In this document: positions 4,674 through 26,965 of the stretch, in pieces | How the letters are laid out: every line of letters starts with the position of its first letter | Position numbering within the stretch: the first letter of the stretch is position 1 | Source of the DNA: a virus | DNA: 37,337 bases | Virus record (IMG/VR): IMGVR_UViG_3300049076_000010 | Span: 1 to 37,337 of that record | Reading direction: 5' to 3' (one strand) | Position numbers and translations under genes: made by a program | Notes under the pieces: generated by a model | Told to the model about the DNA's origin: nothing | Seen by the model: only the letters and a program-made list of their open reading frames with translations | Databases searched by the model: none

Positions 4674-5081
4674 TTACAAAAAATCTTTAAATAGCGGCAT
4701 TTCAGCGATTAACTCTATTTCTGAGGGAATAGGCCTTTTATCAGCTTCAACATCAGCCTGGATAACAAGCGCTTTCTCCCATAATGCCGTTACCCATTTA
4801 GGGGCTGCTGCGGCTTCTGCTGCCCAAGTGGGATTAGTTGAGCTTAGATAAACCGCCATTCTCTCTAGGTTGTTATAGCCCATTGCTTTAACGATAGTCT
4901 GGATATGTGATTCGATAGCATTATCTAAACGGGAGATAGTCTGCTCTCCGGTTTCCACTGTTTTAGGCTGTGTTTCTTCTATAGAGATAACGTCGCCTTC
5001 TTTTAATGAAGGCTCGTAATTATCATCATTAGGCCCATAACAAACCAAAGTGCCATTGTTTCTAACAACTTTAAAACTCAT
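4674..5081 (-). CDS. Hypothetical protein, possible tail-fibre accessory/assembly factor
   Basis: 135 aa. ATGA-coupled to the 3' end of the tail fibre gene. Function by position only. Confidence 0.4.
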   Translation of the reverse strand: MSFKVVRNNGTLVCYGPNDDNYEPSLKEGDVISIEETQPKTVETGEQTISRLDNAIESHIQTIVKAMGYNNLERMAVYLSSTNPTWAAEAAAAPKWVTALWEKALVIQADVEADKRPIPSEIELIAEMPLFKDFL

Positions 5082-6442
5082 GGTAGATATTCCTTGATTG
5101 TGATTCTGGAAGCCATTACACCGCCGTATATTTGCACACCAGCACCGCCATTGAATGTGGTTGTGCCAGCCAGGTTGCCACCAGCCCTAACTCTAAAGGT
5201 CGTTGCAGATGTAGTGCCTGCGGTCATGATGTAGGTGAAATTAATGCAGGTATTACCGCCAGCGGTGGCAATCAATGATCCAGCAGCGGCTAATGCATTG
5301 GCAGTGGCATCCTGAAATAAGGCTGCGCCCATATTGTTAACAACCGATGATGCAACAATGATGGTGACGGCTATTTCTAAGGTGCTGGACGCATTCGTTG
5401 GAGTAATAGCAAGGCTTAAGTATTGGTCGCCTTCTGTGATCTGGGGAATGGTGTTATCAAAAGGGAGTAAGGTGGTTCCTGTAGCAACGGTGCCAGATTG
5501 TGAAGTAACGCTTTGCGCAAGTTTTTTACTCGTGTAATCAACCAAGGCAAGCCCACTATATTTCTTAGGGCGCAACCTAAACTGTGTCGTGGTAACTGCG
5601 GTGACTTCTACTTCATCACCTGCCGCACCTGTAAAGCTGACAACGCCATCAATCAGCATATTTGCGCCAGCCGTGAAACTTGCTGCGCCTGCAAGTATCA
5701 ATGTTCGTGTAACCCCTGCTTGTGGTGCTGCTGCAAATCCGGTTGCTGTAGTCGTGCCTGTGTAGTTGATATTGTTGGAAGTGTTAGTCCAGATGTCAGG
5801 GGTAGTAGCGGATGCGACTGTAGAGATGGATTCATTAATTGCATCGCCACTGCGTAGATTTAATTTGGGGATGCTGCTATTGGTCGGTGTTAAAATTCCG
5901 TATTGCACTGCTGATAAACCGCTATCTAATACGCTTGAACCATCCATAAATACAGTAACAGTTGTTAACGCGCCAAACACGCTAGCAGTGATTGTCCCGT
6001 ACACCGTCCCTGCCGTGACCGTGGCTTTAATCCTGCGGCCTACTTCAAATGCTGTGGTTTGATCGCCTGGCAGAGTGAATTGTGTGGCAGAAACATAGGT
6101 AGGCGTAACCCCTGAAACTAACCATTGGTCGATGGTTAAAGATGCGTCGTTAATGCCAGTGACGTTATCTATATCCCAAATAGGCGAGACAGGCGGGTCG
6201 CTATCGGTCGAAGCGGTAAACACAAACTTATAGCTTAAACCTTCCGTTAACCAGATAGGCTGAGTAGGTTCGCCACGGCTATCCAATATGATAGGGTTGG
6301 TTTGCGGTGTTAAGCCATCAGCCCCTGTATAGGTGGTTTGTTTTGTGCTTGAGCCTGCTGCATAGCTGAATAATTTAGCCCCGCTTGCAGGGATGCCGTT
6401 AATAAATTGGGCTGACAAAATAACTGGCGAAAGCTTAGCCAT
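5078..6442 (-). CDS. Tail fibre / receptor-binding protein
   Basis: 454 aa. The N-terminus (MAKLSPVILSAQFINGIPASGAKLFSYAAGSSTKQTTYTGADGL...NPIILDSRGEP) is the common phage fibre/spike N-terminal pattern. The rest is T/S/G/A-rich and beta-like. Last structural gene. Confidence 0.7.
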   Translation of the reverse strand: MAKLSPVILSAQFINGIPASGAKLFSYAAGSSTKQTTYTGADGLTPQTNPIILDSRGEPTQPIWLTEGLSYKFVFTASTDSDPPVSPIWDIDNVTGINDASLTIDQWLVSGVTPTYVSATQFTLPGDQTTAFEVGRRIKATVTAGTVYGTITASVFGALTTVTVFMDGSSVLDSGLSAVQYGILTPTNSSIPKLNLRSGDAINESISTVASATTPDIWTNTSNNINYTGTTTATGFAAAPQAGVTRTLILAGAASFTAGANMLIDGVVSFTGAAGDEVEVTAVTTTQFRLRPKKYSGLALVDYTSKKLAQSVTSQSGTVATGTTLLPFDNTIPQITEGDQYLSLAITPTNASSTLEIAVTIIVASSVVNNMGAALFQDATANALAAAGSLIATAGGNTCINFTYIMTAGTTSATTFRVRAGGNLAGTTTFNGGAGVQIYGGVMASRITIKEYLP

Positions 6443-6538: not shown

Positions 6539-8722
6539 CTAATCGTCGCCTTCTTGAATCGCCGTTAGACCGTAAAGGCTGGCCATCGGTGAAGATTCGC
6601 CTTTTGGTTTGCGTTTAGCCAATAACTTCATTTGGTCTTGCGTGGCTTTACTGGCTTGCACGGCCTTCACCGTGCCGCCACCTACTGTTTTAATCGGCGG
6701 CCCGACAACTGGCACTTTTTCTATTGCATTGAATACTGAATTAGCCAGATTGACTAAACGTGAAGCCGTGGCGCTATTGGTAGCACTCCTAGGTTGCTGC
6801 TTGTTAATCAAATTCGCCGCTTTGACAAAATCATCTAGCTGCGTTTTAGCGGTTTTACCTAGCACTTCTTCCAAATTCTCTTTACCAATGCGGTTGTAGG
6901 CTTTTTCCAGTTGGGCAACACTCAAGCTTGATTTGCCATTTACATCGGTTAACGCTGCGTCTTTGATGTAGCTTAAAGTTTGTTTGCGTAGGTTCTCGAT
7001 CTGCTGCTGTCCGGCTTTGCGCTCTTCGCGGTTGCCTGTGTATAACAATCTCTTCACATTTCGGATGTCATCACGGTTGCCGTTAATGACTACCTTATTG
7101 AATACATCTTCTTGATTAATGGCTTGGTCTGTTGTACCTTTTTTAAGTCCTACCAAGTCACGCACGGATTTAGCTCCACTCTCAAACGTCACGCCTTGTT
7201 CACGCCGTAACTTCGCGGCATCACGGTATAAATCACCGCCGTAGGCTTCAAAGGTATCGTCTACCAAATTCTTAGCCTCGGCTAATGCACCGTTTTGCTG
7301 TGATTGTTGAGAAATAGTTTTTCTGAGTTCGTAGAAGTTACGCAAAGGCGCATCGCCAGCGATTAATTCGCCTTTGTCGTTTTTGGTTACAATGCCGAGC
7401 TTTTGCGCTTTGGTAATCAACCCGTCGACATCCTTAAAGCCCTGGTTGTAATCCAGCCATTGAATCAAATTATCGCTAGGTTTGCCGATATTACCGCCAG
7501 CCACTTCCTCGGCTTGCTTGTATGCGCCTTTGGTAGCTGTTTTGGCCTTGTTGTAGCGCTTTAAAGCCTCGCCCTGTAGTTGCGCCCCTGTTTCCTTAAT
7601 TGAAGCCGTCTGACCGCCTGTTTTGCCGATCATGGCATCAAGGTTCTGGCCTAGCTGTGTTTGCTGTTCTTCAAAGCGGTTTCTTAGCGGTTTACCAAAG
7701 AAAGTGTCGGCAAGCACGCGCTCGTTATCCTGTTGCAAGAAGTCCTGAGACAGCTGGCCTTTGGTGCCTTGCATGGGTACTGGTAAAGAACTCAGCACGC
7801 CTTGGTTAACTGCTGCGTTAGGTTGTTCGCCAACCTTCATGGCGTTATAGGCAAATTCACGTGCTTTCGCTTTGGCGGCATTGCTTAATTGGCTAATATC
7901 GACACCGCTTTTTGCCAGATAATCATCCACTTGCTGTATTTGGATGTCATCCACGGTTTTAGCTGCTTTTGCCGCCAATTCTGTAGGTTGTAAAATACCC
8001 GTGACGGCATTGACAGTTTTGTTAGCTGCACCAGCCAGACCGGCACTAGTTAAACCGCCTGCCACTGACATACCTAATTGGGCCATATCACCACCGCCAG
8101 CTTCTTTAGTGGCTTGACCGCCTACCCCTGCACCAGCAGCTCCAGCGATTTGCTGTTTAGGCGCTGCTGCGAGGAAATTGGCAATCTTTTGCGCGGCGGG
8201 GCTTAATACTTTAGCGGCCTTGTTTGCTGCGCTGATTAACCCGCCTGCTCCTGCTGCCATCTTCCCACCGGATGAGATGATGCGTTCCGAGGCCATTTTT
8301 GGCGCTGGCAATCCGATCAAGTCGGCAACATTACGCCCTGCACCACTGATAGCTTCTATACCTTGATTGATATAATCAGGTTCTTGCTGTGGCACTACTA
8401 AATCACTTAGTGTTGGTTTTGCAAATGATTCACGGATTTTCTGCCCAGCCATACCCGCTAAACCAGCAGGCATGAACTTATTAACCGTATTGGCTAAACT
8501 GGCGACACCGCCCACCATTTCTGGTATAGCTTCCAAACCAACACGCGCAGTCAATCCTACGGCACGAGGCACACGGACTAATGTCTCACTTACGCTACTA
8601 GGTAAGCTAACGCTAGGTTCTTCGGCTACAGGAGCTTGATAAGCTTCCCACGGCTTTCCTTCTGGTGCTGGTGTTTCATTGCTTGCGTATTGTTCCCAAG
8701 GCTTCATTATTTTTTCTTCCAT
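6539..8722 (-). CDS. Large internal virion / ejection-type protein (P22 gp16 positional analogue)
   Basis: 727 aa. Ala/Gly-rich N-terminal third and a helical remainder. It is the third of three consecutive genes between the gp10-like hub and the tail fibre, as with P22 gp7/gp20/gp16. Confidence 0.5.
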   Translation of the reverse strand: MEEKIMKPWEQYASNETPAPEGKPWEAYQAPVAEEPSVSLPSSVSETLVRVPRAVGLTARVGLEAIPEMVGGVASLANTVNKFMPAGLAGMAGQKIRESFAKPTLSDLVVPQQEPDYINQGIEAISGAGRNVADLIGLPAPKMASERIISSGGKMAAGAGGLISAANKAAKVLSPAAQKIANFLAAAPKQQIAGAAGAGVGGQATKEAGGGDMAQLGMSVAGGLTSAGLAGAANKTVNAVTGILQPTELAAKAAKTVDDIQIQQVDDYLAKSGVDISQLSNAAKAKAREFAYNAMKVGEQPNAAVNQGVLSSLPVPMQGTKGQLSQDFLQQDNERVLADTFFGKPLRNRFEEQQTQLGQNLDAMIGKTGGQTASIKETGAQLQGEALKRYNKAKTATKGAYKQAEEVAGGNIGKPSDNLIQWLDYNQGFKDVDGLITKAQKLGIVTKNDKGELIAGDAPLRNFYELRKTISQQSQQNGALAEAKNLVDDTFEAYGGDLYRDAAKLRREQGVTFESGAKSVRDLVGLKKGTTDQAINQEDVFNKVVINGNRDDIRNVKRLLYTGNREERKAGQQQIENLRKQTLSYIKDAALTDVNGKSSLSVAQLEKAYNRIGKENLEEVLGKTAKTQLDDFVKAANLINKQQPRSATNSATASRLVNLANSVFNAIEKVPVVGPPIKTVGGGTVKAVQASKATQDQMKLLAKRKPKGESSPMASLYGLTAIQEGDD

Positions 8723-21408: not shown

Positions 21409-21437
21409 AAAAAACCCTATGAGGATTAGTCATAGGG
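21409..21437 (-). terminator. Strong intrinsic terminator in the late leader (tR'-like)
   Basis: The minus strand reads CCCTATGA-CTAATCC-TCATAGGG followed by TTTTTT. The stem is a perfect 8 bp. It lies about 300 nt downstream of the Q-like gene and 100 nt upstream of the first late gene. Confidence 0.75.
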
Positions 21438-21685
21438 TTGTAGTCATCTAGTACGCCGTCCAGCGTCCGAGAAAGTTAGCTTTTATACTAACAAGAAATA
21501 GTTATTGGCCTTTTATCGCTCGCCTCAAAGGTTAGGCCGACTTGTATACAAATCTTTGTTCGCAATAACTATTGCTTCTTAATACATAAATTTAGGGGGC
21601 AACTATCCTATCGTGGATTCCGCAGCCCTGTTTTTTGTCTAATGTAGATACGGTGATGTAAGTATGCGCCTACTTTTTAATAAGC

Positions 21686-21713
21686 ACAATACCTACAGAC
21701 AATATATTTTCAA
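21686..21713 (-). promoter_or_regulatory. Candidate late promoter (PR'-like)
   Basis: The minus strand reads TTGAAA-16 nt-TATTGT just downstream of the Q-like stop. A weak call in AT-rich sequence. Confidence 0.3.
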
Positions 21714-21735
21714 TTAATTATTCTAGTGAGTTTTG

Positions 21736-22245
21736 CTATCTTTCCATCTTCTGCTTAACCGTATGTAAGCCATTGCGTTGCTCATTAGTGAATATAGATT
21801 GTACTTCCATTAACCTACGCTCCCAGAATTTAAGATAGATTTCCAGCGATACGCCTATGGCCTTGGCACGTTGCATGTCTGTGTGTCTGTGTAATCCAGT
21901 TCCATTACAGGTTTCACAGCGGATTAGTTTCTTCTCTATCAATGCTTCTTTACGTCCGTTACAAGTCTTGCAGAAGTTGAATGCTGATTCATATATCACT
22001 TGGTTACATACTCTTAACAGGATTTGTTTGTCGCATTTGATCTTGCGTCCTGCTTGGCGTGCGAGTGCATAGGTTAATTCTTTGTGGGCGGTTGCTTGTA
22101 ATCCGTCTATAAATCTTACTGCTGCCATGCCGATAGGGGAACTGATACCTGCTATACCCATCGCACCGATTAGGTCGATGCTGGTGTGTGATTCTTTCTG
22201 CTGTAGGCTCTTTGAGTGGATTGCGGTTGCAAGGATTTGTCTCAT
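21736..22245 (-). CDS. Q: Lambda-type Q late-gene antiterminator
   Basis: 169 aa. IGAMGIAGISSPIGMAAVRF parallels lambda Q MAAMGMAQSQAGFGMAAF. Paired zinc motifs CKTCNGRK...CETCNGTG parallel lambda Q CRDCHGTG...CGRCKGVG. Followed by a leader containing a terminator. Confidence 0.75.
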   Translation of the reverse strand: MRQILATAIHSKSLQQKESHTSIDLIGAMGIAGISSPIGMAAVRFIDGLQATAHKELTYALARQAGRKIKCDKQILLRVCNQVIYESAFNFCKTCNGRKEALIEKKLIRCETCNGTGLHRHTDMQRAKAIGVSLEIYLKFWERRLMEVQSIFTNEQRNGLHTVKQKMER

Positions 22246-23936: not shown

Positions 23937-24380
23937 TTATCGTGGCCTTTCGCTGAATAAAACGCCCATACTTGCACCATCTGCATGGATTTGGTCTAGG
24001 TATTGTGAGAATCCATATTTGGTTAAATCTGTCGTACTGGCTACTAGGATAAGATTGCCTGCCGGGTCTGTGTTCCATTTCTTGTATGATTCTGGATGTT
24101 TCACTAGCTCAAACAGATACGGGTCGTTTTCTTCTGGCAGATACAAGGCTTTAAAATGCTCATGCCATACTTTGTCAATGAACTGACGGCCTTCAACGTA
24201 AGCCTGCTCTGCAATATCCTTCAATGGCCCAGCCCACATCAAGTCATTGGCGCTTTGTGAGCGCGCTTTAACTGGTTCACGCAAGACCACTTCAATGTTA
24301 TCTGGTGCATTGTCGATAGCCGCTTTCGCGGTATCACGTTGGAGTTGGCCTGTTAGTTTGATGATGCGTTGTTTAAACAT
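23937..24380 (-). CDS. ninB: NinB (lambda Orf-like) recombination mediator
   Basis: 147 aa (lambda NinB is 146 aa). RSQSANDLMWAGPLKDIAEQ parallels lambda RSLDQNRKLWACLGDVSRQ. Confidence 0.65.
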   Translation of the reverse strand: MFKQRIIKLTGQLQRDTAKAAIDNAPDNIEVVLREPVKARSQSANDLMWAGPLKDIAEQAYVEGRQFIDKVWHEHFKALYLPEENDPYLFELVKHPESYKKWNTDPAGNLILVASTTDLTKYGFSQYLDQIHADGASMGVLFSERPR

Positions 24381-25629
24381 CTTGAACCTCTAAGTTTTTG
24401 ATTTTCCAGTCTGTGCGGCGGCGTTTCATTAAATCAACGTATTTTTGGTATGCGCTAGACTTGGTTGGACTGAACCCCAAACCTTTGCACCAGTAATCGT
24501 TTTTAAGAATCGTCTTAACAACCTTACGCCATGATGGGACTTTGCCTAATGATTCAATCTTACGATCTGCTTTATCTGGTATACCGTCCGGATAACCACG
24601 CTTACTCCACCAGTTTAAATACACCGCTAGTTTGTTTTTGTAGTGTTCTCCTGTCGCGTTAGGCATGGTGTTTAATAAATGCATGGCGAAAGATTCAAAC
24701 GTATGGCCTGCTGGCAAATCAATCGAGTAGTTGCCCATGACCGCGCCTTTGTCGTTGGCATATAGCGCTCCTGTATTCGCACCAGCTACCCTTAAACAGA
24801 CTTTCGCCCACATCTGCGGCTCTACGACTTGGTATAACCACAAACCTTTCCTAGCTTCATCCCCGAATGGCTCACAGATACGCATTTGGCTTAACTTGAT
24901 TCCAGCCTGATGCATACGGTCATACAAAGCGTTGTATGGTTTGTTAAACTTACCCAAATAAGTCCAGATGTCCTTAGTTGCCATGTCGTAGATTGGATAT
25001 ACATTCCAGCAATCGTCAATGACTTTGGTTGTCCATGCTTTTTCTTGGAACTTGTCTTTCTCTCTCGCTACCGTGCGGAATCGGTTTAGGCTTTCATCTG
25101 CTCTTATGCCAACAAAGCAAGCACAGGGTTTACCATCGGCATACCATTGCCCGAACAACGGCACGAATTCTTCAAACGGCATACCTTCGTAATAAAATGG
25201 GAAGTAAGCCATATCCGTGATAGACATTGCATCCGGCTGACGTACCCATAGCTCTTGTTTCTGACTATCCCAGGAAGTCCACTCCGGCTCAATCTGGCTG
25301 CAAGCATTCCAGGTTTTAATTGGTAAGGCTATCCAGTAAGGTTCAATCCATTCTGCATATTCCTCAAACATCTGCTTGGTAAAATCTATCGTCAAACCAA
25401 TCTGGCATTCCCAGTCTAAAAACATACAGCCAATTTTACGGTTGCGTTTTTTGGCTTCTTCCATGACTAAGTGCAACATGACAGTGGAATCTTTACCGCC
25501 AGAAAAACTTATGTATATTTTTTTAAAGTTATCAAATGTAAATTCAATGCGCTGTTGCGCTGCGGTTAAAGTATCAATTCCCAATTTAATTTTTGGCATA
25601 GTTATTTTTCCAATGTTCTTTGGCTTCAT
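24373..25629 (-). CDS. PAPS-reductase-family PP-loop protein, IbrA-like
   Basis: 418 aa. PP-loop SFSGGKDST. Long C-terminal extension, as in IbrA/DUF3440-type proteins. Start may be Met11 (25599). Confidence 0.75.
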   Translation of the reverse strand: MKPKNIGKITMPKIKLGIDTLTAAQQRIEFTFDNFKKIYISFSGGKDSTVMLHLVMEEAKKRNRKIGCMFLDWECQIGLTIDFTKQMFEEYAEWIEPYWIALPIKTWNACSQIEPEWTSWDSQKQELWVRQPDAMSITDMAYFPFYYEGMPFEEFVPLFGQWYADGKPCACFVGIRADESLNRFRTVAREKDKFQEKAWTTKVIDDCWNVYPIYDMATKDIWTYLGKFNKPYNALYDRMHQAGIKLSQMRICEPFGDEARKGLWLYQVVEPQMWAKVCLRVAGANTGALYANDKGAVMGNYSIDLPAGHTFESFAMHLLNTMPNATGEHYKNKLAVYLNWWSKRGYPDGIPDKADRKIESLGKVPSWRKVVKTILKNDYWCKGLGFSPTKSSAYQKYVDLMKRRRTDWKIKNLEVQDV

Positions 25630-26044
25630 CTGCCGCTTGGTTTGCTAATGCTTGTTGCTGCTCATTTAGCATGGCCCATGCCAGTCTGGTTAAATCCTCT
25701 GGAGCATCATGATTTACCGCGCAACCTGCATGCCCTAGCCACGCCTGATGATTGATAACTGATGCACTTAAGTTAACATCTGATGAATTAGGCCAAGTAT
25801 CTACAGCTTTAATCATTGCCGCTTTAAACGCTGGAATATTCAACATTAAATCTCTGGATTGAATAATCTTTTCCCGCCTTTGCTTAACTGGGATTTGCTT
25901 CCACATATTGCCTTGATATTCTTCCATGTTGGTGAAGTGGTGATAGACGCGCTTAATCTTCAATGTCGCCCACCATTTCAATATCTGCGTAAGATTCGGC
26001 TTCCCATGCTTCGGTGAATTCTTCATTGTTGAATAACGAGGCAA
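25586..26044 (-). CDS. Hypothetical protein between the ParB-like and PAPS-reductase-like genes; start uncertain
   Basis: 152-aa ORF overlapping the ParB-like gene by 92 nt, so an internal Met (for example 25927) is likely. The motif NHQAWLGHAGCAVN is reminiscent of the N4 gp49 / Sf6 gp66 family. Low certainty. Confidence 0.45.
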   Translation of the reverse strand: MPRYSTMKNSPKHGKPNLTQILKWWATLKIKRVYHHFTNMEEYQGNMWKQIPVKQRREKIIQSRDLMLNIPAFKAAMIKAVDTWPNSSDVNLSASVINHQAWLGHAGCAVNHDAPEDLTRLAWAMLNEQQQALANQAADEAKEHWKNNYAKN

Positions 26045-26612
26045 GGCCAGTAATCTGCTGTAGCCTTAACACTTCATCAGCTTCCATGCCTAACTGTTTA
26101 GCTATTTTTTCATCAGACCAAAAGCGGCGTTTAAGCTCTACTACAATCTCGCTCATTGAATCGACTTTGTGCTTACCTCTTGCTCGATTGTGGCGAATGG
26201 TAGAGGCCATGCGGTCGCCTTTATCTTCCTGGCTTTGGCGAATCTGCACCAATGGTAAATAGCCGTGAATCCTTGCTTGAATATCTGCACATTCCTTGCC
26301 TACGCGGTGGCGGTGAAATCCATCAACCACTTCGTACTTATCCTCACTTGGCATGGATACGATCGGCTGCGTATACCCGTCAGCATCAATTGATACTCTT
26401 AGTAATTCCATTTCTACCGGAGCTACAGAGTTAGGGTTATAGTCATTAGAAAATACCGTATCGTTTTTTACCCATTTTACAAAATCTACTGGCTCTGTTT
26501 TGAACGGGCTTAAATCGTGAATAACTTGGCGTAATGTGTTGATTAAATCAACTTTGCTATCAAGCGTTTCTGATGATTCTATAGCTCGTTTAATTTGTTC
26601 TTGTAAGCTCAT
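25953..26612 (-). CDS. ParB/sulfiredoxin-domain protein, IbrB-like
   Basis: 219 aa. ParB-box-like VVDGFHRHRV and downstream STIRHNRARGKH. Confidence 0.7.
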   Translation of the reverse strand: MSLQEQIKRAIESSETLDSKVDLINTLRQVIHDLSPFKTEPVDFVKWVKNDTVFSNDYNPNSVAPVEMELLRVSIDADGYTQPIVSMPSEDKYEVVDGFHRHRVGKECADIQARIHGYLPLVQIRQSQEDKGDRMASTIRHNRARGKHKVDSMSEIVVELKRRFWSDEKIAKQLGMEADEVLRLQQITGLASLFNNEEFTEAWEAESYADIEMVGDIED

Positions 26613-26742
26613 ATTGTTCTTTCAGTTTTTGTCTTATCCACTTAGCGCGGCCCAGTTTGGTTAATTGCTTCCACTCATCATCATTGAAGCGCATGGCCCT
26701 TACTTTGGCTTTGCTGGCTATTTTTGGTCTACCTCTGTTCAT
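26590..26742 (-). CDS. Small basic ribbon-helix-helix-like protein (50 aa)
   Basis: Hand-translated: MNRGRPKIASKAKVRAMRFNDDEWKQLTKLGRAKWIRQKLKEQYELTRTN*. Beta-strand then helix pattern (VRAMRFNDDEWKQL). No SD sequence. The ATG lies 7 nt after a TATAAT box. Confidence 0.45.
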   Translation of the reverse strand: MNRGRPKIASKAKVRAMRFNDDEWKQLTKLGRAKWIRQKLKEQYELTRTN

Positions 26743-26749
26743 GTGGATA

Positions 26750-26777
26750 ATTATACCGATATTTTATTAAATGTAAA
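26750..26777 (-). promoter_or_regulatory. Candidate internal sigma70 promoter driving a leaderless transcript
   Basis: The minus strand reads TTTACA-16 nt-TATAAT-tatccac-ATG (plus-strand tgtaaa 26772-77, attata 26750-55). Confidence 0.45.
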
Positions 26778-26782
26778 TACAT

Positions 26783-26965
26783 TTATTGCTTATGCGGAAT
26801 TGATAAATAATGTACACAGTCGGTGTCTGCTAGTTTCCAGAATTCTTTAAATTGCCGCTCGTCAGGCTCTGCCTTGAATCTTAAACAGGTCTCACGATAA
26901 GCACAGACATTCCCACCCTCTGGGTTCTGGCCTTTGCATTTGCTGTTGTCTGCTGGTATTTTCAT
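26783..26965 (-). CDS. Hypothetical Cys-containing protein (60 aa)
   Basis: ORF track. Follows the helicase stop after 3 nt. Confidence 0.5.
   Translation of the reverse strand: MKIPADNSKCKGQNPEGGNVCAYRETCLRFKAEPDERQFKEFWKLADTDCVHYLSIPHKQ

Follow-up and report, generated by a model that had tools for sequence, protein, structure and literature searches.

The IbrA and IbrB proteins of Escherichia coli, known from the ECOR-9 IbrAB island, the YbdN/YbdM pair of strain K-12 and phage PhiR5_2, form a named system. Only annotation-level mentions were found in the literature searched for IbrA/IbrB, DUF3440 and ybdNM, with neither a functional paper nor a solved structure among them, and no PDB relatives were found beyond generic proteins of the phosphoadenosine phosphosulfate (PAPS) reductase fold. 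A comparable pairing is DndB/DndC, in which a PP-loop ATP-pyrophosphatase from the PAPS-reductase clan is joined by a member of the ParB superfamily and which offers a plausible working analogy for adenylation chemistry on DNA; DndC is defined by a three-Cys 4Fe-4S site and a Cys dyad (PMC10853773). In the 7-deazaguanine DNA-modification system DpdA/DpdB (PMC12839542), as well as in phage ParB-methyltransferase fusions (phrog_498), a ParB-like NTPase domain likewise acts as partner or targeting module of a DNA-modifying enzyme. Here, a member of the IbrA/IbrB system is described in a stretch of viral DNA of 37,337 nucleotides, positions 1 to 37,337 of the IMG/VR virus record IMGVR_UViG_3300049076_000010 (the window). 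This member contains a further, middle protein, called MID, and is preceded by a candidate leaderless-type promoter and a putative small regulator, both specific to its lineage.

The conserved unit consists of three genes, IbrB-MID-IbrA, to which a GNAT gene is optionally added, as follows from the synteny of the three genes and from their fusions. The window genes are, with near certainty, this module in its GNAT-less form. They are part of a series of four overlapping, co-directional open reading frames (ORFs) on the minus strand, read from the window sequence: a 50-aa basic ORF (26590..26742), the IbrB-like gene (219 aa, 25953..26612), the MID gene (125 aa, 25586..25963) and the IbrA-like gene (408 aa, 24373..25599). 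Successive genes overlap by 23, 11 and 14 nt, and the IbrA stop then overlaps the start of a NinB gene by 8 nt. An initial annotation, made from the sequence alone, had placed four co-directional genes between the replication and nin modules, and all the ORFs and quoted motifs are indeed there. Megablast of the cassette against isolated phages gave zero matches; relatives were therefore sought at the protein level.

The IbrA-like protein carries the SFSGGKDST motif and can be read as 418 aa from the ATG at 25629 (24373-25629) or as 408 aa from the ATG at 25599. The latter is likely the true start, because the homologues are 402-410 aa long and begin with MPK.GLGID; residue numbers in this text follow the 418-aa form. 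Two Pfam families are matched in succession, PF01507 with 64.1 bits (gathering threshold, GA, 22.5; 2e-17) and PF11922/DUF3440 with 128.9 bits (GA 25; 2e-37), and phrog_2302 is matched at 1e-88. The protein is 48.5% identical to the IbrA of PhiR5_2 (query coverage 96%), 41% to the IbrA of a Streptococcus phage and 76% to an unannotated gene product of the Pseudomonas phage Amjad_SA. Its identification as IbrA and the two domains first predicted for it thus hold, in the right order and above GA.

Homologues of IbrA make up at least 8000 clusters at 90% identity. Among 37 diverse sequences, the PP-loop residues S43, G45, K46, D47 and S48 are conserved at 90% or more, together with Cys252, Cys381, His309 and His329. 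Cys252 lies just after the PAPS-reductase domain, beside a low-confidence linker of the structural model, and Cys381 belongs to the invariant motif LKNDYWCKGL. The N-terminal PP-loop (SGGKDS) domain has the PAPS-reductase/CysD/FMN adenylyltransferase (FMNAT) fold, and the C-terminal part is the helical DUF3440. In the AlphaFold model (predicted local distance difference test, pLDDT, 76), the N-terminal domain is of high confidence. Foldseek placed the model closest to CysH (6vpu, 1e-7), then to FAD synthase/FMN adenylyltransferase and CysD, and more weakly to tRNA thiolases. The full-length search matched only the PAPS-reductase-fold domain (~230 aligned columns) and returned nothing for DUF3440, which was not searched alone. 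In NCBIfam, the PP-loop matched TilS and LarE weakly and stayed below all cut-offs for CysH, DndC and CysD.

The IbrB-like protein combines an apparent ParB/Srx-type N-terminal domain, with the motifs NDYNPN, VVDGFHR and RHNRARGKH, and a C-terminal helix-turn-helix (HTH; LGMEADEVLRLQQITGLA). Across its relatives, NDYNPN, VVDGFHR, RHNxARGxH and the HTH are conserved. It matches the 'ParB-like' phrog_2159 at 2e-68 and is 46% identical to the IbrB of the E. coli phage PhiR5_2 and 67% to an unannotated gene product of Amjad_SA, in agreement with the IbrB-type identity initially proposed from the sequence VVDGFHRHRV. Identity to the IbrB/ParBc proteins of PhiR5_2, CV-1-33 and Amjad_SA is 46-67%, the two ParB-like partners other than that of PhiR5_2 being at 59-67%. 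The profile expected at the outset, PF02195 (ParB_N), reached 22.4 bits, just below its GA of 26.3. A further match of the ParB-like domain is to the ParB-methyltransferase proteins of phages (phrog_498). An IbrB profile aligned with the ParB/Noc structures 4umk (7.5e-4) and 7ol9 over the NPxxPR and GxxRxR regions, and in the profile-structure alignment the CTPase motif GERRxRA of ParB/Noc is replaced by DGFHRHR. A canonical ParB partition protein or CTPase was rejected, with this box II absent and TIGR00180 at 19.3 bits for a cut-off of 58.45.

The third protein, MID, is the main new result: sequence comparisons indicate a conserved third subunit belonging to an unnamed family. It carries the motifs NHQAWLGHAGC and WPNS..NLSASVINHQAWLGHAGCAVNHDAPEDLTRLAW and is 125 aa long from the TTG at 25963; the Joint Genome Institute (JGI) call is 113 aa. 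The TTG start is the best supported, because the homologues begin with M/L-KIKRVYHH and so conserve K-R-V-Y-H-H upstream of the ATG used by JGI. Its members fall into 108 clusters when grouped at 90% identity, and about 764 representatives remain at 50%; the family has no counterpart among those of Pfam, PHROGs, NCBIfam or PADLOC. The AlphaFold (AF2) model, with a pLDDT of 96.8, is all-alpha and has seven helices. A structure search with it gave no PDB fold match at E<1 (best E 4.8), and the lone match in the viral library BFVD is a homologue. Profile-profile comparisons of MID with IbrA and with IbrB revealed no relationship, which rules out MID as a duplicated piece of either protein.

The placement of MID was followed in 60 IMG/VR loci fetched by the MID profile and in the earlier loci. 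Wherever the flank is long enough (65 related loci), MID immediately precedes IbrA and IbrB is adjacent; the order is IbrB-MID-IbrA in most loci and MID-IbrA-IbrB in four. Mycobacteriophage Gaia (gp103/104/106) and Pseudoalteromonas phage XCL1123 show the arrangement IbrA-ParB-(x)-MID. On a contig of a Coxiellaceae metagenome-assembled genome (L005, 417-1991), MID and IbrA are fused in one ORF. Among the longer MID-family proteins, which were checked for informative fusions, only a MID-GNAT fusion of 251 aa (P0233) and an odd chimera of MID with the C-terminal half of DUF3440 (P0365) were found. The classic IbrA-IbrB loci, that of E. coli included, lack MID even when searched with a broad profile. 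A function of MID as an adaptor or specificity subunit of IbrA is a guess.

The pairing of the ParB-like and PAPS-reductase-like genes, already recognized in the initial annotation, is real. In 37 loci from genomes and phages, IbrA adjoins IbrB wherever the flank allows (35 of the 36 first-fetched loci; the 36th ends after IbrA). Such pairs occur in phages of Proteobacteria, Firmicutes, Actinobacteria, Bacteroidota and Cyanobacteria. A gene for a small GNAT acetyltransferase is present in roughly one quarter of the loci. It was seen in 15 MID loci, between MID and IbrA in 12 and elsewhere in the cluster in 3, while 11 loci without MID carry it between IbrA and IbrB; the GNAT of one locus (L004) passes the Pfam GA, and none was detected in the window at E<=1e-3.

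Clustering of all neighbouring ORFs across about 95 loci revealed recurrent SNF2- and DEAD-type helicases (12 and 8 loci, respectively), a single-stranded DNA-binding protein (SSB; 9 loci) and a VRR-NUC-like nuclease (7 loci), the last labelled by eye from its sequence and not by a profile match. Exonuclease, NinG, replication initiators and a MazG-like protein recur as well, and no methyltransferase family does so near the module. In a related phage (L039), the module likewise lies between a helicase and NinB. Since the module sits within an early replication/recombination operon in many phages, the label of moron that had been considered for it is unlikely. Large SNF2/DEAD-type helicase genes directly adjoin IbrA in ~20 of the 95 loci, including phage Amjad_SA (examples are L001 6212-8185, L025 3377-4933 and L065 5521-7551), and the helicase may be a further functional partner of IbrA.

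In comparison with E. coli IbrA/IbrB, the window module has the same families, architectures, adjacency and co-direction, with an identity of 46-48%. However, the order is reversed, with IbrB before IbrA; MID, absent from E. coli-type loci, stands between them; and the module, located within the lytic early operon, has in addition a putative small regulator and a promoter. Compared to DndB/DndC, IbrA is devoid of the Cys dyad and of a 4Fe-4S site, as only two of its cysteines are conserved. It possesses, on the contrary, DUF3440 and MID, and the partners DndA, DndD and DndE are absent. The likeness to DpdA/DpdB and to the ParB-methyltransferase proteins is limited to homology of the ParB domain: their catalytic partner is a TGT or a methyltransferase, whereas here it is a PP-loop enzyme.

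The first gene of the series does not belong to the conserved unit. The 50-aa ORF (MNRGRPK...VRAMRFNDDEWKQLTKLGRAKWIRQKL) has only one close homologue in a search of 5.8 billion proteins, the product P0110, 78% identical, of a 5-kb contig from JGI sample 3300068074 (L038), the one close relative. The two versions differ by 10 synonymous and 11 nonsynonymous codon changes, and the ORF is therefore probably a real coding gene. No match was obtained in Pfam or PDB at E<=10, and nothing meaningful in PHROGs (E<=0.01), NCBIfam or PADLOC (both E<=0.1). The label ribbon-helix-helix (RHH; CopG/Arc/MetJ)-like, given to it originally, found no profile or structure support, no RHH chain being matched in the PDB at E<=10, and corresponds only to a sequence pattern of beta-strand/helix/helix, common to small ORFs of L038 and of another locus, L067. 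In the latter locus, an iterative search of the fetched loci found two weak relatives (5874-6077 and 7452-7730), one of them directly after IbrA, which have in common with the 50-aa ORF the pattern R-x-I/M-R-(M/L)-x-D-(D/E)-E-W...L-G-x-x-(E/K)-W-(I/L)-R. A 52-aa ORF directly before IbrB in a further locus (L043, 2426-2584) is marginally similar and starts an operon after a divergent intergenic region. In the same locus, a long pentapeptide-repeat protein (ADLRGAYLRG... repeats) is encoded at 1279-2055 on the minus strand, divergent from the small-ORF-IbrB operon.

From its pattern, which is compatible with a ribbon-helix-helix, the 50-aa ORF can be guessed to be a putative small DNA-binding regulator. 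Across the loci, no conserved upstream partner of IbrB was found. The genes at that place are unrelated from locus to locus, often overlap the IbrB start and have no dedicated promoter, so that a dedicated regulator with its promoter is the exception. The 50-aa ORF and its promoter are thus a lineage-specific add-on to the conserved module, and the cassette of four genes described initially is to be narrowed to three.

The promoter-like site is of the sigma-70 type (TTTACA-16-TATAAT, 26750..26777, minus strand). The -35 hexamer TTTACA (26777-26772), preceded on this strand by TAA ATGTA, is followed by a 16-nt spacer, the -10 hexamer TATAAT (26755-26750), the sequence TATCCAC and the ATG at 26742. 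Only 7 nt separate the -10 hexamer from the ATG of the 50-aa ORF and no Shine-Dalgarno sequence precedes it, a leaderless-type geometry that corresponds exactly to the one first reported. In a promoter scan, the site was the top sigma-70 match of the 20-34 kb region, with 11 of 12 positions. It is on the coding strand and fills a 40-nt intergenic gap, the only one in that stretch. L038 has the same two hexamers and the same 7 nt before the ATG, whereas 7 of the 16 spacer positions are different and the flank upstream has diverged. It is this conservation, together with the intergenic position and the strand, that gives the site its weight.

A related phage from the same sample (L039) has TTGACA-16-TATAAT-6 nt-ATG at the equivalent genomic place. 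There, a NUMOD4/HNH homing-endonuclease gene (4711-5380) replaces the 50-aa ORF behind the perfect TTGACA-16-TATAAT. The presence of this gene with its own promoter at that place suggests a swappable, promoter-bearing first gene before IbrB. As judged from the sequences compared, a leaderless first gene with a candidate promoter before IbrB looks like a real feature of a small lineage. The transcript of the lambda cI gene from PRM is leaderless. The window site resembles it in the -10 hexamer placed 6-7 nt before the ATG, the missing Shine-Dalgarno sequence, the gene of a putative small DNA-binding regulator and the lambdoid phage. It differs from it by its location in the early-right operon, not in the immunity region, and by the polycistronic genes downstream.

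An operator search at the promoter found a single inverted repeat, a perfect 8+8 at 26768-26785 (TAAATGTA-2 nt-TACATTTA), which spans the -35 hexamer and the upstream stop codon. As the repeat is not conserved in L038, its value as an operator is doubtful and it was not used as evidence for autoregulation, a property first suggested as possible for the cassette and resting on a sequence pattern. Directly upstream of the promoter, a 60-aa cysteine-rich ORF (26783-26965, minus strand; four Cys) is 58% identical to its L038 counterpart at the same place. It has no Pfam family and matches weakly a PHROG without an assigned function (phrog_20586, E 8e-4); it may encode a small zinc-binding protein.

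The window, a JGI metagenome contig, belongs to a lambdoid-type phage with the cassette inside the early-right operon, between the replication and nin modules as was stated from the beginning. Pfam and PHROG matches identified a primosomal/O-like protein, a primase Zn-finger protein and a DnaB-like helicase in the upstream flank, and NinB, NinG, a Q-like antiterminator and the large terminase TerL in the downstream flank. The first of the downstream genes (23937..24380, minus strand), outside the module, encodes a NinB/Orf recombination mediator (Pfam NinB 26.8 bits, GA 23.8; phrog_72, 5e-18). Because the IbrA stop overlaps the start of this gene, the cassette is not separately bounded at its 3' end; a terminator scan found no terminator-like site within or just after it. 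The promoter, if active, feeds the nin genes too, and at its 3' end the cassette is not the self-contained, autonomous unit proposed initially. Further downstream, ~300 nt beyond the Q-like antiterminator gene (21736-22245, minus strand; phrog_127), lies a terminator-like hairpin (21439-21413) with a 10-bp stem and a T-run, stronger than any other in the region; this arrangement (21413-22245, minus strand) resembles lambda PR'-tR'.

Concerning function, sequence features indicate an obligate system of two or three proteins, co-transcribed with replication and recombination genes of the phage and combining an HTH-bearing protein of the ParB/Srx fold and an ATP-binding PP-loop enzyme with two conserved cysteines. 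The reading that is tentatively favoured, at somewhat less than an even chance, is an early-expressed module for the ATP/adenylation-dependent modification of DNA or nucleotides, in its three-component IbrB-MID-IbrA form. A link to DNA is indicated because IbrB has a ParB-like N-domain and an HTH and the neighbours are replication and recombination genes. The enzyme character is indicated because the PP-loop and the Cys/His residues of IbrA are conserved and its fold is closest to the adenine-nucleotide enzymes CysH, FMNAT/FAD synthase and CysD. There is precedent for a ParB-family partner of a DNA-modifying enzyme both in DndB, the partner of the PP-loop enzyme DndC (PMC10853773), and in DpdB, the partner of DpdA (PMC12839542).

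In such a module, IbrB, as a nucleotide-binding protein of the ParB/Srx fold with an HTH, would bind phage DNA and recruit IbrA-MID. The PP-loop of IbrA would bind ATP and adenylate the target, most likely a DNA position or a nucleotide precursor, after which AMP would be displaced by a nucleophile, which could be an amine or else sulfur borne by the two conserved cysteines. Where a GNAT is present, it could further acylate the group. MID, bound to IbrA, would serve as an adaptor or confer specificity without taking part in catalysis, and the modification would label replicating phage DNA or shield it from host defences. In this lineage, a small basic protein of DNA-binding type, encoded ahead of the module, would be expressed as a leaderless message from the internal near-consensus promoter. 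An anti-defence or DNA-modification role of this kind is plausible. Its more specific version, a hypermodification pathway in which a ParB-like loader places a PP-loop adenylating enzyme and the new-fold MID on replicating DNA, where a thio-, amino- or acyl-type adduct defeats restriction, is rather unlikely when taken as a whole.

Several points weigh against the favoured reading. We infer DNA as the substrate, the chemistry and the biological role. Cys252 and Cys381 are the only two conserved cysteines in the 37 IbrA sequences; no sulfur-donor family (cysteine desulfurase, rhodanese, ThiS-like) recurs across the ~95 loci; and the confidence of the IbrA model is modest over DUF3440 (pLDDT 45-84). 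The invariant residues of MID are mostly structural (W, A, G, L) and its role is guessed. The promoter, taken alone, is within chance expectation, since dinucleotide shuffles yield 1.3 sites of 11/12 per window on both strands. Sandt et al. (2002) reportedly found that IbrAB trans-activates prophage eib genes, the only experimental phenotype attached to the pair. Furthermore, the K-12 paralogues ybdNM are chromosomal and form a LysR-repressed operon (PMC9068703), which has no obvious fit to an anti-restriction role.

The annotation 'co-activator of prophage gene expression IbrA/IbrB' on related phage genes and the title of Sandt et al. (2002), on eib trans-activation, speak for a different function, that of a transcriptional (co-)activator. 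IbrB would then alter promoter activity or silencing through its HTH, like ParB/KorB, and IbrA, with MID where it occurs, would supply or consume a nucleotide ligand that switches IbrB. The C-terminal HTH of IbrB is conserved, the cassette lies upstream of the Q-like antiterminator, a SEED subsystem name also carries the IbrA/IbrB co-activator label (PMC5874904), and the ParB-family protein DndB is reported as an ATP-modulated transcriptional regulator (PMC10853773). However, the strict catalytic-type motifs of IbrA (PP-loop, Cys/His) and the recurrent GNAT point to chemistry, members of the family occur in many phyla and types of phage whose regulatory circuits are unrelated, and the activation of eib could be indirect. 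A transcriptional role is considered unlikely. An enzyme acting on RNA, on tRNA, on a small molecule or on the nucleotide pool, with IbrB as its NTPase partner, is improbable to a similar degree. Modelled on TilS, on the thiolases MnmA/TtuA/NcsA, on FMN adenylyltransferase or on CysD, it would target a tRNA base, a cofactor or a signalling nucleotide and would reprogramme translation or blunt a nucleotide-based defence. Such an enzyme would agree with the Foldseek and profile matches to FAD synthase/FMNAT, CysD, the tRNA thiolases NcsA and TtuA and LarE, with the weak TilS/LarE matches of the PP-loop in NCBIfam, and with the roles described for ParB/Srx proteins in conflict systems, where they act as NTPases or as effectors that degrade nucleotides (PMC10853773, PMC12839542). 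On the contrary, the HTH that the obligate partner carries beside its ParB-like N-domain is of the DNA type, the surrounding genes encode helicases and functions of DNA replication or recombination, and Pfam detected no RNA-binding domain (THUMP, PUA etc.).

A prophage-carried defence of the Dnd or BREX type 4, with phosphorothioation by a DndC/BrxP-like enzyme under a DndB-like regulator, is very improbable. The pairing of a ParB-family protein with a PP-loop protein does parallel DndB/DndC, and PADLOC matched IbrA weakly to DndC (2e-8) and BrxP (2e-6). However, BrxP carries DUF4007 and further domains in addition to its PAPS-reductase part, and the match to it (24.1 bits) covers residues 33-93 only, which is the PP-loop; TIGR03183, the DndC profile, gives 27.6 bits for a cut-off of 290.4, with the three-Cys Fe-S site and the Cys dyad absent. 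No DndA/D/E-like or restriction-type family recurs among the neighbours (PglZ/BrxC were not specifically searched), and the genes are inside a lytic early operon; both DndC and BrxP were rejected as identities. That IbrA is a true assimilatory PAPS reductase, an auxiliary metabolic gene (AMG) product boosting host sulfur assimilation, is hardly credible, even if 'phosphoadenosine phosphosulfate reductase' is its usual database name and CysH the closest solved fold. The CysH profiles score 29.2 bits (TIGR02057, cut-off 254.2) and 32.3 bits (NF002537, cut-off 154), the catalytic C-terminal ECGLH cysteine motif is absent, and IbrA has a true ATP-type PP-loop, the extra DUF3440 and obligate ParB-like and MID partners.

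The window itself contributes little more than a clear instance of the module, with a candidate leaderless promoter inside the operon. IbrA/IbrB pairs, however, are very common in phages and prophages, where they are routinely mislabelled as 'PAPS reductase' sulfur AMGs or as 'ParB partition proteins'. In a large subclass, a third subunit is obligate and occurs fused to IbrA or to a GNAT; together with a true ATP PP-loop with two conserved cysteines and an early-operon setting by helicases, this points to a multi-subunit enzyme in a DNA-replication context, for which Amjad_SA (with the same IbrB-MID-IbrA order), Gaia, XCL1123 and PhiR5_2 (a form without MID) are cultured carriers available to experimental work. 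Should the hypermodification pathway prove true, the two-decades-old phenotype 'IbrAB activates prophage genes' would be a consequence of DNA modification.

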